A stretch of DNA of 64,000 nt from Chrysomallon squamiferum. Taxonomy: Eukaryota; Animalia; Mollusca. This document shows, piece after piece, positions 18,768 to 57,700 of this stretch. The number at the start of each line of letters is the position of its first letter. Position 1 is the first letter of the stretch. Position numbers and translations under genes: made by a program. The DNA is taken from NCBI GenBank assembly GCA_012295275.1, contig CM022670.1, positions 5,022,001 through 5,086,000 of the forward strand, given 5' to 3'. The notes beneath the pieces were generated by a model. It was not told the DNA's origin. It did not search any database and was given only the letters and a program-made list of their open reading frames with translations.

Positions 18768-20981
18768 TCAGTTTGGCAAAGCATGCCTCCATCCTTTATG
18801 CAAAGCTGCAGACAAAAAATCTCTGAGCTGAACAAACTGTGGTAAATAAGCCACATTATTCACTTCATCTGGATCAGTTTTTTGTTCATACAGCTCTGTG
18901 CCATAAAGTTCAGACCATTTTGGTTTAAACAGGGATGAATTAAACCCAACCCACTCTGTATATCTGTATTCCGAAGTTCTCATGGAGTAGCCCATTATTG
19001 TAATGTCTTTTAAATGTGGCTTGTCGCTGTTGGCTTGTGGTTCTACTGAAGGTCGTGGATACTGACTAAACACAGCTTGTTTCCAGGAAAAAGAATATGG
19101 CCTTTTAGACAGAGAAATATTTTTTATGATAGGGACAAGACTGGAACCTTCAGAACACAGAATAATTTTGTGTGAATTCTGTGGGCAGGTGGTTGGAATG
19201 GGAAGTCCTGCAAGTTCAGACAGTGTTGGAAATATATCTACAAGTTCAACCAAATCATCTGATATCAGTCCTTGTCCATTCACTGGTAACTTGTATCCAT
19301 TAAGTTTAGCTGAAAACTTTTCAACGTATTTGAAATTGGAATATTTATCCATGATCCTAAAATGTTCTTTCTCCAACATGTGGTTTTTGTTTTGAGACAG
19401 ATGTAAATTTACTGCCCGATTTTGTGAATTGCCCTTTTGTTCTTTTGACATTTGCTCTTTCCAGTGAAATGGATCCACATATTTAAACTGTTCTCTTTTA
19501 TTGGAGTTAACAGTTGTTAAACCTGGAACATAGAACATCAGAGGAACACGAACGGAAACATCAAAGTTGCTATATTTAGACCATTCCTGGTGCTCTCCCA
19601 AAGACCATCCTATAAAATGTAAGACAAATGTCATGTAGATAGAAGATTTTCATTTACCTACATTCATCACAAAACAATAAGTAAATTAACATTTCTTATT
19701 AAATTATTTTTTAAGATGTTAAAAGACAAGTTTATTACTTAATACTTTAAGTATTATGTTAAACATGAAAATGTTTTTAAATTTAGTTTCGTAACCACAG
19801 AAAAGAGTAAAAGTTATATTTCTAAAAACTGTTAATCACCATCATTTTTTAAACAAACAATAGAAGCATCCCTCATCTCCAACACAAACCCCCCCCAAAA
19901 AGCCAAGATGTTAAAAATACTGTTATATAATACAAATATAATTAAAAAAATATATATATTTATCCAAAACATAAATTTCAGAATAAAATAAGACTATTTT
20001 ATTATCATTTAAGTTTCATATTTACCATGGTCTCCAACAAGCACTACAACAGTGTTGTTGGAAAATCCATATTTGTCCAGAGCTGACAGAAGAATCCCAA
20101 CCTGACTGTCCATGTATGATGTAGCTGCATAATAACTCTGTCTAATCAACAACTGAAAATATATTTTTATAACCTTTATAATTACTACTGCTAAAGAGAT
20201 CATAATGAATTAATTTGGAAAAACAACCAAAGAGAATTAATTTAGAAAAGATAAGCAGATAAAAAAAAAAATAAATAAATAAAATAAATGAGTATAAACA
20301 AAACAGAATCTTAAATAGAGTTTCTAAATAATTTTCAGTAACAAAATGAAAATGAAAAATGGAACAAAGTTTACAGTACACTGCAAATAATCTCACATTA
20401 ACATTATCAATAAGAGGTTGAAAAGATAATTAGAATGAAGCCTAAGAAAATTCCTTAATAACATAAAAAAGTTACTAAGTTTTGACTAGATCAAAACACA
20501 AAGTGTGACTGAATTTCTAGCCAAGTCTGAATAATTTCATTCTCACAAAAATGAATAATGCATTGCTTGAATGACTACCTTGAAATTAGAAATTTCTTCA
20601 TACCCAAGCCAAAAAGAAAATTGAAATAAATATCTTTAAAAAGTTTTGTTAATCATTTTAAAGTTTATAATGACAAGGTGTTAGAAGAAAGTCAGTTGTT
20701 GTCTTAGAAAACATACTGGGTATTCACCTGGAAATTCTCAGTAACAGGACCAAAAGGGAAACTGAGGTTGAGCTGCTGTACATCGTGGCGCTCTCTGATG
20801 TCAGTCCACGGGTTCCAGGCTACAAGAGGCAGTTCTAGTGGGTAGGTGTGATGATCAGCTAGATGTATCTCATCCAAAGGATACAAATCTAACAACATAT
20901 ACAACTGTTAACTCAAATAAAAGAGAACAGTTTAAATGTGTAGATCCACTTCATATATACACACACACTAACACATGCACT

Positions 20982-21020
<39 letters not shown>

Positions 21021-23585
21021 ATATATATAGACAAACATACAAATATACACACATTCATACATGTACACATAAAAAATAATTTGTATATGCTGAAATGACA
21101 AAAGAATTGTGTTCAATTACATCAACAATATTAGCTATTGAACAATCAAATTCATGTTGCTAAACATTTTATCTTTTACTTATCATTTTAAGAAGAATAT
21201 TCTCAAGTATGTGAAATCCATAATTTATATGTTTTTCATATGAAATGTTTGCAACAATTATTTAAAAATATGGTAAGATCATGGATAGAATCTAGCAAGT
21301 AAACTGACTGACTATCTATCACTTGCATTTTGGTGGATTTTATCATAATGTAAACAACTTACCGAGATATTCTTTGGGGTATTTCAGTGGAATGTGAGGT
21401 TTGTGATACCCAACAGCAAGAAAGAAAGGATTAGTGTGGTTTGAAGACATGTTTTTCAGAAAATAAGTAGCAAACTGAGTTGTTTGTATATCTGGTAAGC
21501 TGCCTCCTGGTTGTTCACTGACATTGACAGGGCAAACAAGATTCATGTATTTTTTGCCATTACGATCTGGACAAACCTGCAAAAATATACAGTTTTAAAA
21601 TAAAGATAATAAAGTTAATGAAATAATTAATAGAAGAACAAAAACTAAAACTAAAATTAAAACTGAAACAGAAAACTAATAAAAGTAATAAAACAAAACA
21701 AAATTTCACTTGTAAAGTTAACAACGTTACTGTGAGTTTTAATGGTGTTTTTTTGATAAATTAAATTTATTTTGACCATTAAATGCTGATAAGTTACAAA
21801 CAACTAGGACTTAAGGCAGCAGAAACAACTCACAATATTATTTTAACAGAAGATGAATATATTTCTAATACTGCTATTATTGTTGTCGCTGTTATTGTTG
21901 AAAGAAATTAATACACTGTTACCTTTGCCATCTTGAACTGTTGTGTTGGTGGGTGATAAGCAGGAAATGACCAGCTATATGGATAATCATCTGTATAATT
22001 GGAAGCAATACCTACAACACCAAAGATAAACAGCCAGTTTTATTGTGTCATAAATATATACACTGTAACTGCTATTTTAGAAAGAAAATCAAAATAAATT
22101 ACTGAATATTTAAAGAAATCAGTGCATTTAAATTTTTATTATTAGAAAATGTTAATCATGTGACTGTTAATGAAAGATGGGAAAGCACCAACTGAAGCCT
22201 TTGATATGTCAATTGTGGTAAATGGCTATAACTGGAAACAGCCCAATAATATTTTCACAGTGTACATGTTGGGCAATTCTTGATCCATCAAACTGTAGTG
22301 AACTCAATGGAAACAGAAAAATTGTTTTTAAAAAAAACAATTATAATAATAATAATGGAAGTTTCTGATAAATTTTTGAAAATAGATTTAAAACTAATCA
22401 AAATATAAATTAATTAATTAATTAATTAAATAAAATAAAATAAAAATATTATAACAAAAAAATAAATATATAAAACAAATTTAAGAACAAATAATTATAA
22501 TTAAAAAAGAAATATAATTTTTTTTTTTAAAAGAAAATTAAGTAATAAATGAATAAACAAAATTACTGGATTATTGAATACAAAATTAAATAATTACTTA
22601 AGTGTAAAAATTTTTTTGCTTTGTTTTTTTAAGGATAGTACATATTTAATTATATGTCAAATAAATAAATAAATAAATAAAAGAAAAAAAAGAAAATACC
22701 AGGATGAAATACTTTTCCAGCTGATTGTGTCAAGTAGCCATTTTCCTTGAAGTGTTGTGGAAGTGTTGTAAAATTTCCTGCAGCTTTTCTCCAGTAGGAA
22801 TAAAAGTCATAGAGTTGAGTTGTATCAGGTCTGCGACTTGTCAAGAATGAAGTACGACTTGGACCACATAGTGCTTGCTATATTAATATATCAGAAAAAT
22901 ATTGGTGCTTGCTATGTTTATATATCACAAAATAATATGTTATGACAAGAACAGTAATATTCCTAAGTCAGTTAGATCAATATATATTATTCAAGAAATT
23001 AAATATAATTTGATTGATAATGGTTTAATCAAGCAGCAGTGAATTTCAAATGATACAGAAATTATTTTAATTTTCTAGCAAATTTATTTCATTATTAACA
23101 GTTTTCAGGCTTCAAACTATTTTTTTCTTTGGTCAAATAATTCTGTGAAAAATAAAATCTGATTCTGCCTTTTCTGGAACAGGAATCTGCAAGATATATA
23201 AAGAGAGAATAATTTTGGGGGACCATCTACTATCCCAGCAGCAGATCAGTATTAAAGGCTATAGCACATAATTTCCTTTCTGTAGTAAGGTGCATATATA
23301 TATATATACATTGGAGTTTTCAAAATAATTCAGTCTAACATGAGTGTACCTGAACAAATGCTTTATTGAAAAGTACAGCATTTTCTTGCCAGGTTGTCAA
23401 TATTTGGTGTAACCATATGTTCATTTCCATAGCAACCAAGTGTTGGTCGAAGATCGTCAACCACAATAAACAAAATGTTGGGTCTAGAGATTCCTACAAT
23501 GAACACAGTTCGGAAGTTCCATAGACATTAAATAATTTTGTTTCAGAAAGTCACTTTATTTAGTCATGAATGTTACTTGACTTCA

Positions 23586-23913: not shown

Positions 23914-24397
23914 TGAAGTGGTAAAACACACACAGTTTTATTGTAATATTATTTGCCCTTGGTTGATGTCTCGATAAATAAAATATTTTCAAAAGCAAAT
24001 TCTGGAATGTTACGTATCGAGACTATTAAATTCGAATAGTTTTCATTGGTCAAGGGATATGGCTTAAAACTATATACATTTGTCTCCCTTGAAACATTGC
24101 TGTAGAAACGCATAAAAATAAAGAAAAAACAACAAGGAATTTACGAATTATAAGACGGTAAATATTTGGTTTAAACAGTTAATTTACGTAGTTTTATATT
24201 CATATAACCATCTGATAGTTTCGGCATAAAAACAAAACTAAAATTACGGGTTTTATGTAACGATAAGCCAAAGATGTCATTTGTAAGGTACAATTACTGA
24301 ATTAGCGTTAAAATTGTTTGGTTTTATGCGGAATAGTAATTAAGTAACTTTTAGTAAGTGTTTTATATATTTTTAATAATTTTCAGATCTTTTAAAG
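23914..24397. promoter_or_regulatory. Probable bidirectional promoter shared by IDS and TXNDC9
   Basis: Divergent start codons are only about 485 bp apart (23913 and 24398), with a local rise in CpG. A probable TXNDC9 5'UTR intron ends at ttttcag (24386), with a candidate donor at 24158. Confidence 0.6.
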
Positions 24398-25054
24398 ATG
24401 GAGAAAGTAGTAGAACAGCAGGTGATTCAAGCCACTAAGGTTATCGAAGAACAGCTTGATGCAGAGATTGAACGAATGGAGAAAATGGATGAAGATGATT
24501 TTGAAGTTCTCCGTCAGAAAAGGCTTGATGCGATTAAAAAATCAGCTCAGCAGCAGCAGGAATGGCGAGCAATTGGTCATGGCGAATACTCCGAGATATC
24601 AAATGAGAAAGAGTTTTTTGAAGAGTGCAAGAAAAGCAAAAATGTTGTCTGTCATTTCTACAGATCCAGTACTTTTCGATGCCAGATAGTAGATAAACAT
24701 TTGTCAATTCTTGCACCAAAGCATCTTGAAACTCGATTTTTGAAGATTAATGCAGAGAAGTGCCCATTTTTGGTTCAGAGATTACGAATCAAAGTATTGC
24801 CAACTATCTGTATTGCCAAAGAAGGTAAAACAGTTGATTACATTGTCGGTTTTGATGATCTTGGTAGTGTTGATGACTTTCCAACTGAAATGCTTGAATG
24901 GCGCCTGGGATGTGCGTCATGTATAAATTATCAAGGAGACATTTTGAACCCACCAGCTCTGGATGAAAAGAAAAACAAAAGTATTTTCAATGTGGTGAAG
25001 TCAAAGAAAACAATCAGAGGCAAAGATGACGACAGCAGTGATGATGACTGGTGA
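24398..25054 (+). CDS. TXNDC9: Thioredoxin domain-containing protein 9 (phosducin-like, PhLP3/APACD)
   Basis: Uninterrupted 218-aa ORF with WRAIGHGEYSEI..EKEFF..VVCHFYR..FRCQIVDKHL..LAPKHLETRFLKINAEKCPFL..YIVGFDDLG..LEWRL and a KTIRG..DDSSDDDW tail. Confidence 0.96.
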   Translation: MEKVVEQQVIQATKVIEEQLDAEIERMEKMDEDDFEVLRQKRLDAIKKSAQQQQEWRAIGHGEYSEISNEKEFFEECKKSKNVVCHFYRSSTFRCQIVDKHLSILAPKHLETRFLKINAEKCPFLVQRLRIKVLPTICIAKEGKTVDYIVGFDDLGSVDDFPTEMLEWRLGCASCINYQGDILNPPALDEKKNKSIFNVVKSKKTIRGKDDDSSDDDW

Positions 25055-50470: not shown

Positions 50471-51719
50471 TCAGGAATTATCTGTTCTTTGATTTATGTT
50501 GCGAGATCCCATGGACATTTGGTTTTCTCTTGCCTTTTGAGCTTGTTGTTTTTGTAAGAACTGAATCACTTCAGGAGATCGTAGTAATGCCTGGAAAACA
50601 AAAATAAAACATAACTATACAACAACAATAATAATAATAAATATATTAAATAAAAATATAAAAATAGATAAATGAATAAATAAAATAAGATAAAAAGAAA
50701 AAAATCGCTCATAAAATTTTCTACAAATTGAAATCTCCTTGCATTTCCTGTTTTGTGGTAATGGTTCAGGGGAGGCAACTGTTTCCTGAGGGTTGACTAT
50801 AGTTTCTGGCCTGGATAAATCAAATTCCATTATTATTATTTTTTTTAAAAACATAAATAAATAAAATAAAAGTTAATAAAAAAAATGAAAAAAATATACA
50901 GTTATAAAAATTTCATCCTTCCTAAAACTGTTAATAAAAATACTTTTGTCTAAGTACAAATGTTTTATTTTTTACACTATTTAATATATTAGTATTAATA
51001 CTTCTTAGGCATCAAACATGTATTGTTATACAGAAATATACCAAACTTGCATAGAGGATGCTGGTTTCTTTTACTGTATTTTTTTCTATAATCATAATTA
51101 TTAACTCAAAGTAAATTTAAAAAAAGAAAAGGAAAAAGAAAATTGCAGCATATGATTCAGGATAGTTGGGGTTAAGTTTAATCTTTCTTAGTATTCTGTT
51201 TTGATCAGCTTGCAAAAGACTGCTTGATGATAATCTGTGACAGTAATCAATCAAAAACTAGCAACAGATTTTATCTTTCATACCCTCACCAACCTGTTTT
51301 TTTTTTTTTTTAAATAATAAATTTAAAAGAGAAATGTGTTATGGTATTGATAAATCTGCAATTATTAATTTATTTGAGTTAGATGGAAGCTATATTAAAA
51401 TAAATACCAGTTTCTTTTCTGTAAGTACATCTTCCAACATACTCGAGACAGGAGCATTTTTGAAACCAGGCTCAGCAGATTCTGGAGTTACTGAACCTGA
51501 CAGGTGGCGCAGTGTGTCTTCAACAGAGAAACACTCAACAAAATCTGAAGATGCTCCATTCTGAAAATGTAATTTGTAAAGCGACACATAATTACACTGA
51601 TATTAAAACAATATCATTTTTAATTTAAAAAAAACAAAAAAAAAAACATTTGACTGTGTATTTACTCAGCAGTCAGAAATTTGTTGTAAAACACAAAGAA
51701 ATTGAACCAAACAAAACTA

Positions 51720-51750
<31 letters not shown>

Positions 51751-52189
51751 AACACACACCACATCAAATACTCACCTCACTTTTACTTCTTGGTCGACGA
51801 GACTGATTTGTACTGTTCAGTTTTGAAGACTGCCGTATCTTTTTAGGAGTGGTCTCTGTAGAGTTATTTCCCTTGTCACTCTGACCAGTTTCTGAATCGG
51901 TCTGTGATCTTTTCTTTCCTTGTTCAGAATCACTTCTGTCTTTATTCTGTTCCATTTCAACAGTGATACATGTCACATCCTGTGAAGTGTTCATGTCCAT
52001 GTTATCATCTTTATTTGTTACAGTCAAATTTGTTGTGTCCACATTAGCAACAACCACATAACTCAGCTGAGGAGTATTCACAGTACTCAGAGTCACAGAA
52101 CCAAGAATGGGGTCCTGAGATGGGTTAGTGTCTAAGACCACCATTTTGGATTCTTCTGGTTTAGCTTCAGAAATTTGTGAATCCATCAT
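50471..52189 (-). CDS. RFXAP: RFXAP-like protein (regulatory factor X-associated protein), about 228 aa
   Basis: Exons 51776-52189, 51408-51560 and 50471-50590, all phase 0. The spliced C-terminus SMLEDVLTEKKL|ALLRSPEVIQFLQKQQ matches the human RFXAP C-terminal motif as recalled (LLEQVLNQKRLSLLRSPEVVQFLQKQQ). A basic NLS-like stretch lies upstream. The true start codon is uncertain. Confidence 0.85.
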
Positions 52190-52489
52190 CTGATATCTAA
52201 AGCAGGAATTTTATTAATTTTACTTTTATAATTTGGAAACAGTATTCTTTGGGGTTTTTTTTACTGTTATTTGTGCAAGGTATAATAAATTGAAAAAAAA
52301 AGAAGAAATATGCCTCTGCATATAAACTTTACCCTCCAACAAGCATAAAGTATTCTTAAAACAAACGAACAAAACAATTATTAAAAAATAAGTATCTAAG
52401 TGTATCTGTTGTTATGCATTTTGAATGTACAGTATAAAATGTGTTTTACCTCTTATTTCTGTTAGTGTTATTTGATAAACAGTTTTCAT

Positions 52490-54749
52490 TTAAGCAATAG
52501 CAAGATCAGTTTTTGTTGGAGCATGAACCTTTTCTCCAACCATAAAATCCTCCTAAAAAACAAAAAAACACATCTGAAAATATATTCATAGACACATTCA
52601 CACATATACATATGAAGATTATACTTTATAGCTTTCTGCATTAATGAAATTGAATTATGAGCATTGTTTTTATCTTCTCAAATATCATAAGGGTTAGATT
52701 AATGAGCAGACTGATTATGTACTTTATAAATATAATACACCAAAAAAAGACAAAAAAAAAAAAAAAAAAAAAAATAAATTTCTGCATTAATGAAATTGGA
52801 TATAAATAAGCAGAAAGTGTAGAAAATAAATAAAATGTGCATTAACATAGGTAAAAACTAAGCTGCCATTAAGTCAGTGAACAGCCTTATAAAGCAATGC
52901 TTGTCTGCAGCAACCAGGTCAAAGAATCAATCATCATTTATTTTATTTTGCTACAAGTATCCATCCCATAACATTCTAGTGTATTAACGAGTTATTTAAA
53001 ATTGCTTTTCTATTTTTTATATTATGCATAAACATACTTTAAAATGTTACCAGAATTATCAGTATCTTTATGACTGATGTGGTTATTACCATTTAAGACA
53101 AAGAAAAGGGAACAACAGGAACAGATGATACCCTGCCTGTGCTGTGGATACAAAAACATGATGCATTACACAAGAGATTCTGTTATATATTTCTTTCACT
53201 TAGTATGTTGTGTATTAGTCAAAGTGGTTATTATAAGTGTAGGGGGAAGTAAGAATTGTGAAAGTTGGAGAAATCATGACATGTATACTAAATAGGTTAA
53301 AACTGCATACTTACTGGATCATATATAACTTTGACAAGAAGAGAACAGCTGGGACATTTGGCTACATCTTCACCTGCTTCCAGTTCCTCCTAGAATAATA
53401 AAAATATTACTAATAAAAAAAAATAATAATAATAATAATAAAAAATATATATATGTATATATATAAATGATATACTGAAATCACACATATTAATGACACT
53501 GACATTTGAATACAAATTTATTAGAAAATGTGTGCATGTGTATGTGTTGTTTTCAGTCTAATAATACTGATAATTAACTGAGAACTGAAAAGAAATTTAT
53601 AACATTTTTGGACAAACCACAGAAAGAAATGATTATACAGATTTACTAAAATAAATGTAAATTATTACTTAGTTTATACATAAATGTATTAACATTATTA
53701 TTTAATATATTATTATGACATAAAAATTAATGGCAGTTTAACTGATTTACATAAAGGTAGGTCTTATCATGTTATATATTTATTTCAAGGGAGGATGTCA
53801 AATTGGCATTGCATTTTATGTGCAAATAGATGCTATTTAAAATAATTATATTATTAAATTTATACTAATGCATCCTTTGATGTTAATGATAAAATACTAG
53901 AATATTAATCAAGCCTAATCTGATATATATATACAAACACAATGCAACATTTAGTCTTACTGATTTTTGATTGTAAGTGCAGTTTTTGAGGCCATCACGC
54001 TTAAATGGATTACATGATTTTCAACTGACACTACCTGCATAGATGGTTAATTAACAATAGTTATAACAAAGTAAACTGATACATGATAATCAAAAACTAA
54101 AATAACAAATATTACAGATTTTAGTTTATTTTATAAAACTTTTTTCTTGATTTTCAAAAAAACAATGATAATAATTTATACATTCGTAACATTCACTTTG
54201 ATATGTTTTAATTAAAAAGATAAGGAATTTTAAACAGCATCTAGCTGCACGTAAAATGTATGGCTATTTGGCCCATGCGGAAAATTAATTTACTTTGTAA
54301 TTTAGGCCGATTTCGCCCTTGGCGAGATGATGCTCGGCTAATGATACATATGATTGAATGATTGATGGATCGACTTGGACCGAGATCGATAGATTCCATT
54401 TAAAGTAACTTAGTAAGAACAATAAATGCTGTGACAATGGCAACATAAATGTCTATCACGTTCCATAATTATAAGTACAATACAACGTTAACTGTTATGA
54501 TTGCATGAAGGTTGATCAGTTCATGAAAGTTTTGAAACGATCACTTCACTCATCAATTCAGTCATCAATGTCGATGACACATTAACTGATTCAGTGACAT
54601 TGTAACTTGTTGTAGTTGTTGTATCATCACTGAAACATTACCTTTGTAATTTCAAATTTATCTCCACACGGACAAGGATAGTAATATGTTTCAGTCTCTT
54701 CATCATATTCCATGTCTTCAATTTCGATTTCGTCGTGAAAAACAGACAT
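52490..54749 (-). CDS. DPH3: Diphthamide biosynthesis protein 3 (CSL zinc finger, KTI11), 81 aa
   Basis: Exons 54642-54749 ([36 protein letters not shown]), 53315-53389 ([25 protein letters not shown]) and 52490-52552 ([20 protein letters not shown]). CPCG..CPSCSL signature present. Not shown in the ORF track. Confidence 0.96.
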
Positions 54750-57700
54750 TTTTAAAACTACCTGCTTGTGCGACACATGTCACAGCCATTACATTTCATT
54801 CTTTGTGAATTCGTCCTTCTCGCTGGCGCATCCGTAATAATTATCTTAACTAAAACGTTAGGGTAAGTAGGAATACAAACTTAAGATTTTTAAGACAGGA
54901 AAAAATATTTTATTTAAACAATAATCTCAACCCAAAATCAATTTATAATTATTCCGATGGTTAAAGACCCCATACAGAAACTGAGAAGATTAAGGAAACG
55001 TATTAGATTATTGTTTTGTTAAATATTTTATCTTATTACTTTTTTTATTTTTAAAATGGAAATCCACAAAGAAAGATGGAAATGCTGTTCAGATTCAAAT
55101 AAGCATACAGCGACGGATAAAAGTAATTGTAGCATAGGTGTTAACAAATGTTTATCTTACGATTCAGTATGTGGGTGGTATTTATAAATATACCAAGTAC
55201 AGATAATTAATTAAATTTCTCCTTTGTGTTAAAGATTTTCAAACATTAGTTAATATATTTTGTTAAACATTTTTCTTTACCATGAACAACCATTGATGAA
55301 AGACTTTTGGAAAAATATACATTCAAAAAGTATTCTGTACCAGTGTAATACTGGCACTTATTTGTTTTATTCTTTAGTTATCCTCAGCCACCGTCTCAAC
55401 ATGACAAACAATCTACCAAGTAAAGGCGCCACAGTACTTTTGACGAAAAATTCTTTCCAGGCGCCATCTGACTTCAAATAGATTTTAGATCAGTTGACTA
55501 ATGCACGATTTGCGTGATCTTTCGCTCAAAAACTGTAAACACTGCTAATGCAATTAAATCAATTTTACTACTGAGCCAAACAAAATAATAAAAAAATCTG
55601 ACCTGTTCCTTAAATAGAGCGTCACCTATCGGTTAACGCTAACAAAATTGTAGTGCGCAGCCGATGACTTTAGATTATTTTTGCTATTATTCACTGCCAA
55701 GTTAGGTCGTATCAGTAACGGGGCTTTCTTATAATATGAGACTTCCCGTGAGTTCCTCGTGGACATTTTAAGTTATCTGTTTCGGTTATTCGATAGACAG
55801 ATTAGTTCTCGAATCTTCTTCGTTACAGAGGGTGATTAGGGGAAGTGTGAAACGCCGGTCTCGGCCACACATTTAGTGTATACTCTTTTATATACACGTC
55901 AAGTTGACTAACCCCCAGCTTATGAACAAGAATTAGAAGTGAAATAAAGGATATAACAAAATGTGGCGTTTTGGTATTTTCTTCGTGAAAAATTGTGAAA
56001 AAACAACACCTTCCCCCAACAAAAAGTACGCAGAGATTGCATACTGCTGAGCTTAATCATGTTTTTTCCATTCTAATTTAGTAGAATATACAAAACATTT
56101 CAAATAAATATCATTAATAAAGGAAAAGATAATTGAAATGTATGTATGTATGTGTGTATGTATTTATGTATATTACTGCATGCCTATATTTATTTGACTA
56201 TACGTACACATATGTGTTTTATCCGTACACATATGTGTTTTATCAATGTGTTTGTATCATGTATGTTGTGTATATATAATGAATGAAGATACAGTAATAA
56301 ATAACATCCACATAGAAACGCAAATACAAACATTCTCTGCTGTCAGTTTTAATCTCTAAATGATTAAAGGTGATAACAAAAGTTCCAGATACACCCAATT
56401 ATACAGATCATTTTAAAATTAATAAAAGATAAGCCTCAAACATAAACGGGCATATATTTATACTTTTACCATTTTGATAATGTAATTAACTCTTCAGCTA
56501 TTTTAACATTGTTCGACGGCACACTGTCTAGGACCTCCATTGTGTTGTTGAGGGTCTGGGCAGTTGAGTAGGTCACATATTTGGGCACGCCTACAATATC
56601 AATAAGCTTGACCACTCTGGACCAGTGTGCCCACTATCAAATTAATAATGTGTGTTATTGTGTTCTAGCTGAGCAAATAAACGCCCAGAAACATCAGTAA
56701 TTTAACATCATTTCAAGTGGCTTTAATAGATTTGTTCCGTGTTCATTTGTTTGATTAACGTTTAAGCGGTTTTTGATACTGTTTAACATAGAAATTAATA
56801 TAGATTATTTGTATTCATTAAACGGATATAATTAATTTGCACTCCATTAGAGTTTTCATGTCGATATGTATTTTAATAAATATGGTATCAATCAGTCTAT
56901 ACTACTTTGACGATTCGCATCCAAATAAAAAATCTGTAATAGAAATATTTATTACAGGTGTGTATGTGTGCACAACTTCTGTAATAACATTATATTTAAT
57001 GTTTTTCACACATATGTAGCTGGTTATTCATTAAAAATCTAAATTTGATTCAGTTTATTATTATTATTATTAGTAGTAGTAGTAGTTTTCGTTCTTTCTT
57101 CTCTTTTTTATTTAATTTTTTTTTTTTTTTTTTTTTTTTTTTTGAAATGAGACTCTTTTCTTTCTGATATATTATGCACAGTATTTAGCTTCTTTTTCTT
57201 TTCTTTTTTTTAAAGAAAAACTTCAACGACGGTGGGCAGTTCATTTGAAAATTGATAGACATCGAAATTTTTCGAGTAATCAACCAGAACTCGAACAAAC
57301 GTACACTTAAAGCGTATCATGTGTTAATGATTGGTTATGGACTATTAATACGTCATGGATCTTAAGTACGTCACGTGCTTCATTTCCATGAACTGCCCAG
57401 TTGTTTAGCGCGGACTCTTGATGAAACATGAAATAAGGATATCAAGTAACATTGTTTAACCGGGCGTGGTTTTGTGGGCCATTCACCAACACTGGGTGGT
57501 ACAGTATCGCGTTTTCTTCATGGGTAAAGCTCGGAATAATAGGTACCAACCAGGTTAATGCTGCATTTGTTTAATTTGTTTAAAAACACTGAATAAAAAG
57601 TCATTATTATTTGTTCAAGTTCCTTCGTTTTTATGGCTAGAACTACAATTCAGGCAAAATTTTAGGGGAGAAAGGCTTTTGAATCGCCAAATTTGTTAAA

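Follow-up and report, generated by a model that had tools for sequence, protein, structure and literature searches.

DPH3 and RFXAP are joined by splicing in RNA contigs from a gastropod locus, and DPH3 precedes changing partners in other animal-type contigs

Introduction

The window analysed here is a stretch of 64,000 nucleotides (nt) from Chrysomallon squamiferum (contig CM022670.1, positions 5,022,001–5,086,000), and all coordinates below are positions within it. On its minus strand it carries DPH3, the gene of the diphthamide/Elongator cofactor, followed by RFXAP. RNA contigs show DPH3 exon 3 spliced to the first coding exon of RFXAP, and the two genes very probably share a transcript. 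It is fairly probable that RFXAP is produced mainly from this shared RNA. More tentatively, we propose that the RNA is a two-gene mRNA started at the DPH3 promoter, on which RFXAP may be made by reinitiation after DPH3. In Drosophila, mRNAs that carry two unrelated genes are well catalogued, and the DPH3-RFXAP locus appears to work like them, agreeing in the two features that could be assessed in full. New here are the RNA support for a DPH3-RFXAP unit in a gastropod-like animal and the pattern of changing DPH3 partners in other contigs. The question addressed is how animal ribosomes reach the second open reading frame (ORF) of cellular two-gene mRNAs, given that reinitiation after a real coding ORF is held to be rare.

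Results

RNA contigs join DPH3 to RFXAP

Five sequencing runs contain the stretch, and four of them were placed on positions 51775–52720: three RNA runs, which come from a single study, plus a run of unknown kind. The latter covers the 253-nt intron between the two genes without a joint, as DNA would. In RNA run X2, contig 6 (882 nt, depth 5) omits exactly positions 52449–52197 and continues into RFXAP exon 2; 103 letters lie on the short side of the junction, and by its length the contig includes the whole RFXAP ORF. In RNA run X4, contig 9 comprises DPH3 exon 3, 248 letters toward exon 2 and 13 loose letters that match 52196–52184; it holds DPH3 exons 2 and 3 and, by its length, exon 1 as well. 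Two contigs reach 52196, and in both the sequence spliced to it is DPH3 exon 3 and nothing else (depth ~5). An earlier sequence-only reading had predicted a spliced transcript of the two genes, and this part of it stands: the 52450–52196 junction is present in X2 contig 6 and X4 contig 9, and the RFXAP frame is intact and conserved. Of the translation mechanisms that accompanied the prediction, the stop-start relay is not supported and plain leaky scanning is unlikely, as described below.

The third RNA run, X1, has DPH3 and RFXAP on separate contigs. Its contig 5 splices DPH3 exon 2 to exon 3 and then runs into the intron as far as 52385. This contig may represent a DPH3-only form or unspliced RNA, the latter because none of 12 polyadenylation hexamers occurs in the first 120 nt of the intron, near 52385.

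The locus agrees with dicistronic loci in the FlyBase sense in two features: a processed transcript joins both coding regions (as contigs, not as single molecules), and two intact, conserved ORFs are present without a single fusion frame. A DPH3-RFXAP fusion protein made through splicing was ruled out, because RFXAP lies in another frame and an in-frame stop precedes it in the spliced RNA.

Organization of the locus

DPH3 consists of three coding exons on the minus strand (54749–54642, 53389–53315 and 52552–52490) and encodes a protein of 81 amino acids. It belongs to the DPH3/KTI11 family by its CSL zinc finger (PF05207), which is recognized in exon 1 with 51.1 bits and in exon 2 with 34.3 bits. 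The protein is acidic (27% Asp/Glu), with the acidic residues concentrated at the N-terminus and only five among the last 30. Exon 2 is linked to exon 3 in X1 and X4 by loose contig ends. Exon 3 (52552–52450) comprises the final 20 codons, the TAA stop (52492–52490) and a further 40 nt.

Re-examination of the window sequence showed every coordinate of the earlier reading to be correct. The DPH3 stop is directly followed by an ATG at 52489. The splice donor (52450|GT) lies 40 nt past the stop and the acceptor is AG|52196, so that a GT-AG intron of 253 nt (52449–52197) separates the cistrons. After splicing, the ATG at 52489 opens a putative linker ORF of 16 codons (52489–52186), in the DPH3 frame and spanning the intron, whose TGA (52188–52186) overlaps both RFXAP start codons, at 52189 and 52186. 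The DPH3 and RFXAP ORFs lie 47 nt apart in the spliced RNA. From the DPH3 stop to the donor there is no AATAAA; one AATAAA, at 52215, is inside the intron, 18 nt ahead of the acceptor.

The sole promoter-like part of the unit is a CpG-rich region at the start of DPH3 (54100–55900, no strand assigned), with 53 CpG and an observed/expected ratio of 1.12 against 0.09–0.22 downstream. A 5' untranslated region (UTR) with four upstream AUGs probably extends over 54814–54750 (minus strand), as judged from the loose end of X4 contig 9 (248 letters). It includes a candidate alternative splice donor (54764–54756, cleavage at 54762|54761), 12 nt 5' of the DPH3 ATG. Separately, a 16-nt motif at 54782–54767 (minus strand) is identical at 14 of 16 positions to positions 19–34 of a distant gastropod-like contig, L001; both copies lie in DPH3 5' regions, and the motif may be a promoter element.

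The RFXAP frame and its conservation

RFXAP has three exons with canonical splice sites and 228 codons, all on the minus strand. Exon 1 (52196–51776) holds a 7-nt leader, the ATGs at 52189 and 52186 and 138 codons. Exon 2 (51560–51408) is linked to it in X1, X2 and X4, and the last coding exon (50590–50471) contains the RFXANK-binding helix and the TGA stop. This last exon alone scores 24.6–25.3 bits against PF15289, just short of the cut-off of 26.1, and matches human RFXAP (2kw3_C) in PDB with an E value of 0.003.

A HMMER search for relatives returned two proteins, one of them genuine, XP_041359093.1 of Gigantopelta aegis; the other, a repeat protein, was dropped. The Gigantopelta protein aligns with the three exons end to end (59/137, 41/51 and 23/28 residues identical), and its Met1 falls on the ATG at 52186. 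It passes PF15289 at 41.4 bits and is identical at 64 of 79 positions to the last two RFXAP exons, so that family membership comes through the score of the orthologue while the single exon itself stays under the cut-off. Because the alignment runs across all three exons from the Met of 52186, the RFXAP frame is, on protein comparison, genuine, and its conservation begins with the first residue.

Further relatives were found neither by a word search with the last exon nor in the ESM Atlas, and no Gigantopelta DPH3 appeared among the matches listed (120 of 467). Five variants in RFXAP exon 1 (four replacement, one silent) gave no purifying signal; they are few and come partly from low-depth contigs. 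In RFXAP intron 2, an exon-like, G+C-richer stretch follows an AG at 50810–50720 (minus strand), and the alignment with the orthologue works without it. RFXAP and PDCD2 of Gigantopelta are both on one record of 102,884,749 nt, which may be chance.

DPH3 with other downstream genes

Metagenome contigs were scanned with a DPH3 alignment and the best 80 of 345 relatives were kept, most of them fungal-like genes with introns. Eight contigs with an uninterrupted DPH3 were classed as animal-type, by eye and by the nearest named sequence. In seven of the eight, a Pfam-recognised second ORF follows on the same strand 14–253 nt downstream, with five different partners, a proportion that is an overestimate because all 80 loci are at least 1146 nt long, which favours two-gene contigs and leaves short one-gene DPH3 transcripts unable to appear. 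The partner is PDCD2 at 253 nt in L001, NICE-3 at 105 nt in L002, Ipi1/TEX10 at 15 and 23 nt in L003 and L004, Rpc31 at 14 and 20 nt in L005 and L057, and Rpp14/Pop5 at 221 nt in L007. The eighth contig, the nematode-like L014, faces a convergent gene. Two contigs are candidate tricistronic RNAs with all genes on one strand: L003 (59–3547) encodes DPH3, TEX10 and an HflX-type GTPase with gaps of 15 and 96 nt, and L007 (152–3432) encodes DPH3, Rpp14/Pop5 and a STELLO-like protein with gaps of 221 and 63 nt. In other assemblies, the longest contigs carrying two of the L003 proteins are equal in length. We infer that the contigs are RNA from their long intron-free ORFs and from the terminal A-run of L002. 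Five contigs stand outside the count: L021 and L048, which are animal-like with introns (the next gene of L021 lies about 1 kb on), L006, which breaks off 8 nt past the stop, and the fungal-like L010 and L015, which are spliced and have no 100-codon ORF behind DPH3.

The spacers of the DPH3-first contigs are poor in AUGs (6 seen, 14.5 expected, P ~0.0006), but ordinary 5' UTRs are AUG-poor too, and most of the signal comes from L001. Outside the metagenome set, the Dimorphilus model DgyrCDS3376 joins 78 DPH3 residues to a complete GatC, probably because the gene predictor merged two ORFs that lie close together. An old DPH3-PDCD2 pair was ruled out, since in all 10 named species with comparable records for both, the genes are on separate contigs or their locus tags are far apart (B. 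glabrata was not comparable, and the records may differ in assembly). A Glossina gene model of 173 residues has two tandem CSL zinc fingers.

The partners of DPH3 are lineage-specific, and the same layout with changing partners suggests that DPH3 is a first cistron that has repeatedly gained a downstream passenger. A bolder version, which we regard as doubtful, sees DPH3 as a first cistron that is portable between invertebrate mRNAs: an ORF of 81 codons, rich in AUGs, would permit efficient restart without an RNA element of the viral type, and different lineages would have placed different essential genes behind it (RFXAP, PDCD2, NICE-3, TEX10, RPC31, RPP14/POP5 and probably GatC, at times with a third gene). 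If so, passenger output would be tied to translation of the diphthamide/Elongator cofactor. Alternatively, the partners could have their own start sites inside DPH3. Part of the pattern may also be general small-gene behaviour, because 2.5% of all fly genes are polycistronic, against 23% of those of 25–45 codons (PMC4528330).

Possible routes of ribosomes to RFXAP

We predict that RFXAP is reached by reinitiation on the two-gene RNA. The splice between DPH3 exon 3 and the first RFXAP coding exon would yield single molecules that carry both ORFs, likely transcribed from the DPH3 promoter. A small share of the ribosomes finishing DPH3 would resume scanning. Most of these would pass the linker AUG, because at 0 nt from the stop it is too near for initiator tRNA to be reloaded; a scanning 40S subunit requires distance for this step (PMC5972666). 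They would then start at the RFXAP AUGs 47–50 nt on. The linker ORF would be incidental, and DPH3 alone would come from the unspliced or an intron-terminated form.

Several points weigh against this proposal. The RNA contigs are not molecules, their depth is about 5, and the three RNA runs share one source study. One of the three, X1, does not show the junction and continues into the intron instead. An RFXAP-only mRNA could result from a well-matching candidate donor ahead of the DPH3 ATG, which lies outside the stretch compared with RNA. Reinitiation after protein-coding ORFs has been termed "presumably a very rare event" (PMC5972666), and eIF3 is reported to stay bound over 12–60 codons (PMC10275272), a range that the 81 codons of DPH3 exceed.

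It is unlikely, but more plausible than the other alternatives, that an mRNA with RFXAP alone is the main source of the protein, the two-gene RNA being minor or untranslated. For such an mRNA, either the donor located 12 nt ahead of the DPH3 ATG could be used in splicing or transcription could begin within DPH3. The donor agrees with the consensus at 7 of 9 positions, compared with 6–8 in the donors in use, and its junction to 52196 would produce a leader of 60 nt containing two AUGs that are in frame with RFXAP; however, 0.13 such sites are expected by chance per 65 nt, and both contigs reaching 52196 show the join to DPH3 exon 3 alone. Separate messages would agree with the monocistronic alternatives that dicistronic loci in FlyBase often have (PMC4528330), and with the distribution of the two genes over different contigs in X1. 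As to an internal start site, no CpG-rich patch is found inside DPH3. The sequence-only reading was right that the gap between DPH3 and RFXAP lacks one as well: there is a single CpG in 52190–52490, and the observed/expected ratio is 0.09 across 52190–54100 against 0.91–1.36 at three CpG-rich gene starts. Yet 41% of windows of 300 nt contain no more than one CpG, and the low content of the gap therefore says "not promoter-like" and nothing more.

The relay put forward in the sequence-only reading, with a restart at the AUG behind the DPH3 stop, translation of the 16-codon linker and a second restart at the overlapping RFXAP AUG, is rather improbable. Its geometry is exact and arises in only 0.4–2% of shuffled or random spacers, although the pattern was picked after the fact. 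The ATG aligned to Met1 of the orthologue is the one in the UGAUG overlap, and cellular UGAUG overlaps have been reported for GAD and SLAMF1 (PMC5972666). Stop and restart lie within the ~20–30 nt typical of a TURBS (termination upstream ribosome-binding site) for DPH3 and linker (0 nt) and for linker and RFXAP (overlap), the distance from DPH3 to RFXAP being the 47 nt given above. On the other hand, the UGGGA core of TURBS motif 1 is absent upstream of either stop, as are TGGG and GGGA anywhere in the spliced DPH3 ORF or the spacer, and exon 3, folded over 103 nt, forms no stable structure that could present the motif (no better than shuffles, z −0.95). None of the seven other DPH3-first contigs has the arrangement, four of them having AUG-free spacers of 14–23 nt. 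Two restarts in series would, moreover, multiply two low yields. Coupling through an Asp-rich C-terminus was also considered and found no match, given the N-terminal position of the acidic residues in DPH3.

Still less probable is the delivery of ribosomes to RFXAP without DPH3 translation, by leaky scanning, shunting or internal entry. Internal entry was suggested for many fly dicistrons by Crosby et al. (PMC4528330), and two arthropod-like contigs are poor in out-of-frame DPH3 AUGs (1 against 3.6 expected in L002; 2 against 5.3 in L005). In the window, however, the DPH3 start has an A at −3 and is followed by nine AUGs before the RFXAP start, including two in-frame ones with a G at +4. Leaky scanning calls for few intervening AUGs, and no depletion of out-of-frame AUGs is detected either here (6 seen, 5.3 expected) or over all eight DPH3 contigs (34 against 38.1, P 0.19). 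An operon whose transcript is resolved at the 52197 acceptor through trans-splicing of a spliced leader, of the kind that exists in several animal groups, is very improbable, as DPH3 exon 3 is spliced in cis to this acceptor, neither of the two contigs shows a foreign leader at 52196, and Dimorphilus, with its fused DPH3-GatC model, is reported to be without operons or trans-splicing (PMC7854359).

Discussion

MOCS2, SNURF-SNRPN and ASDURF-ASNSD1 are fixed vertebrate pairs in which the second ORF is reached by leaky scanning through an AUG-poor first ORF. They and the polycistrons of green algae (PMC7896298) resemble the DPH3-RFXAP unit in having a small upstream protein and a spliced mRNA, and differ from it in that DPH3 is AUG-rich and its partners vary. 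Closer are the dicistronic and polycistronic loci of Drosophila (FlyBase 6.04; Crosby et al. 2015, PMC4528330), where two unrelated ORFs share one processed mRNA, the small gene comes first and monocistronic forms are optional; the stop-to-start distance found here falls within their range of −34 to 319 nt. In contrast to them, the present animal is a gastropod-like lophotrochozoan, an intron is spliced out of the spacer, and one first gene is found with six or more partners.

The reinitiation systems that depend on TURBS (caliciviruses, influenza B BM2; PMC5972666, PMC10275272) resemble the locus in that its RFXAP start forms AUGA and UGAUG overlaps, but here the UGGGA core and a stable fold are lacking and the overlapping stop belongs to the 16-codon linker, not to the upstream protein. 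For CASQ2, with its Asp-rich C-terminus, and for GAD and SLAMF1 (PMC5972666, PMC10275272), a second ORF is likewise translated without a viral element, and DPH3 is acidic too; unlike in these genes, the acidic residues are N-terminal and the DPH3 stop does not overlap the second start. Induced 80S reinitiation has been described in yeast (PMC11952965).

No paper presenting DPH3 as part of a di- or polycistron was found in a search that did not extend to subscription journals and bioRxiv supplements. Neither Dph3 nor CG14701 occurs in the legible ones among 12 supplementary files of PMC4528330, of which file 1 was unreadable. DPH3 terms are likewise absent from the accessible main text of PMC2276209 and from the accessible supplements of PMC7896298, where genes may be given by identifier only.

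For comparative and reporter studies, DPH3 offers a ready system: it is small and AUG-rich, comes first, has many natural partners and is followed by spacers of 14–253 nt. In annotation, the gene behind DPH3 will be overlooked or fused, as seems to have happened in the Dimorphilus DPH3-GatC model, and DPH3 knock-downs in invertebrates may hit a second gene.

Other genes of the window

Elsewhere in the window, a single-exon ORF of 224 codons of the thioredoxin/phosducin type (TXNDC9-like; 24380–25054, plus strand) starts in a CpG-rich patch and adjoins an IDS-like sulfatase gene on the opposite strand. At 20799–21098 (plus strand), a frame repeats a 16-residue piece of the last exon of this sulfatase (18768–19649, minus strand), as an inverted partial copy in an intron. 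Between 2278 and 40000 there are genes for a ubiquitin-conjugating enzyme (plus strand), a UFSP-like peptidase of family C78, a sulfatase and a brat-like NHL-repeat protein (all minus strand).

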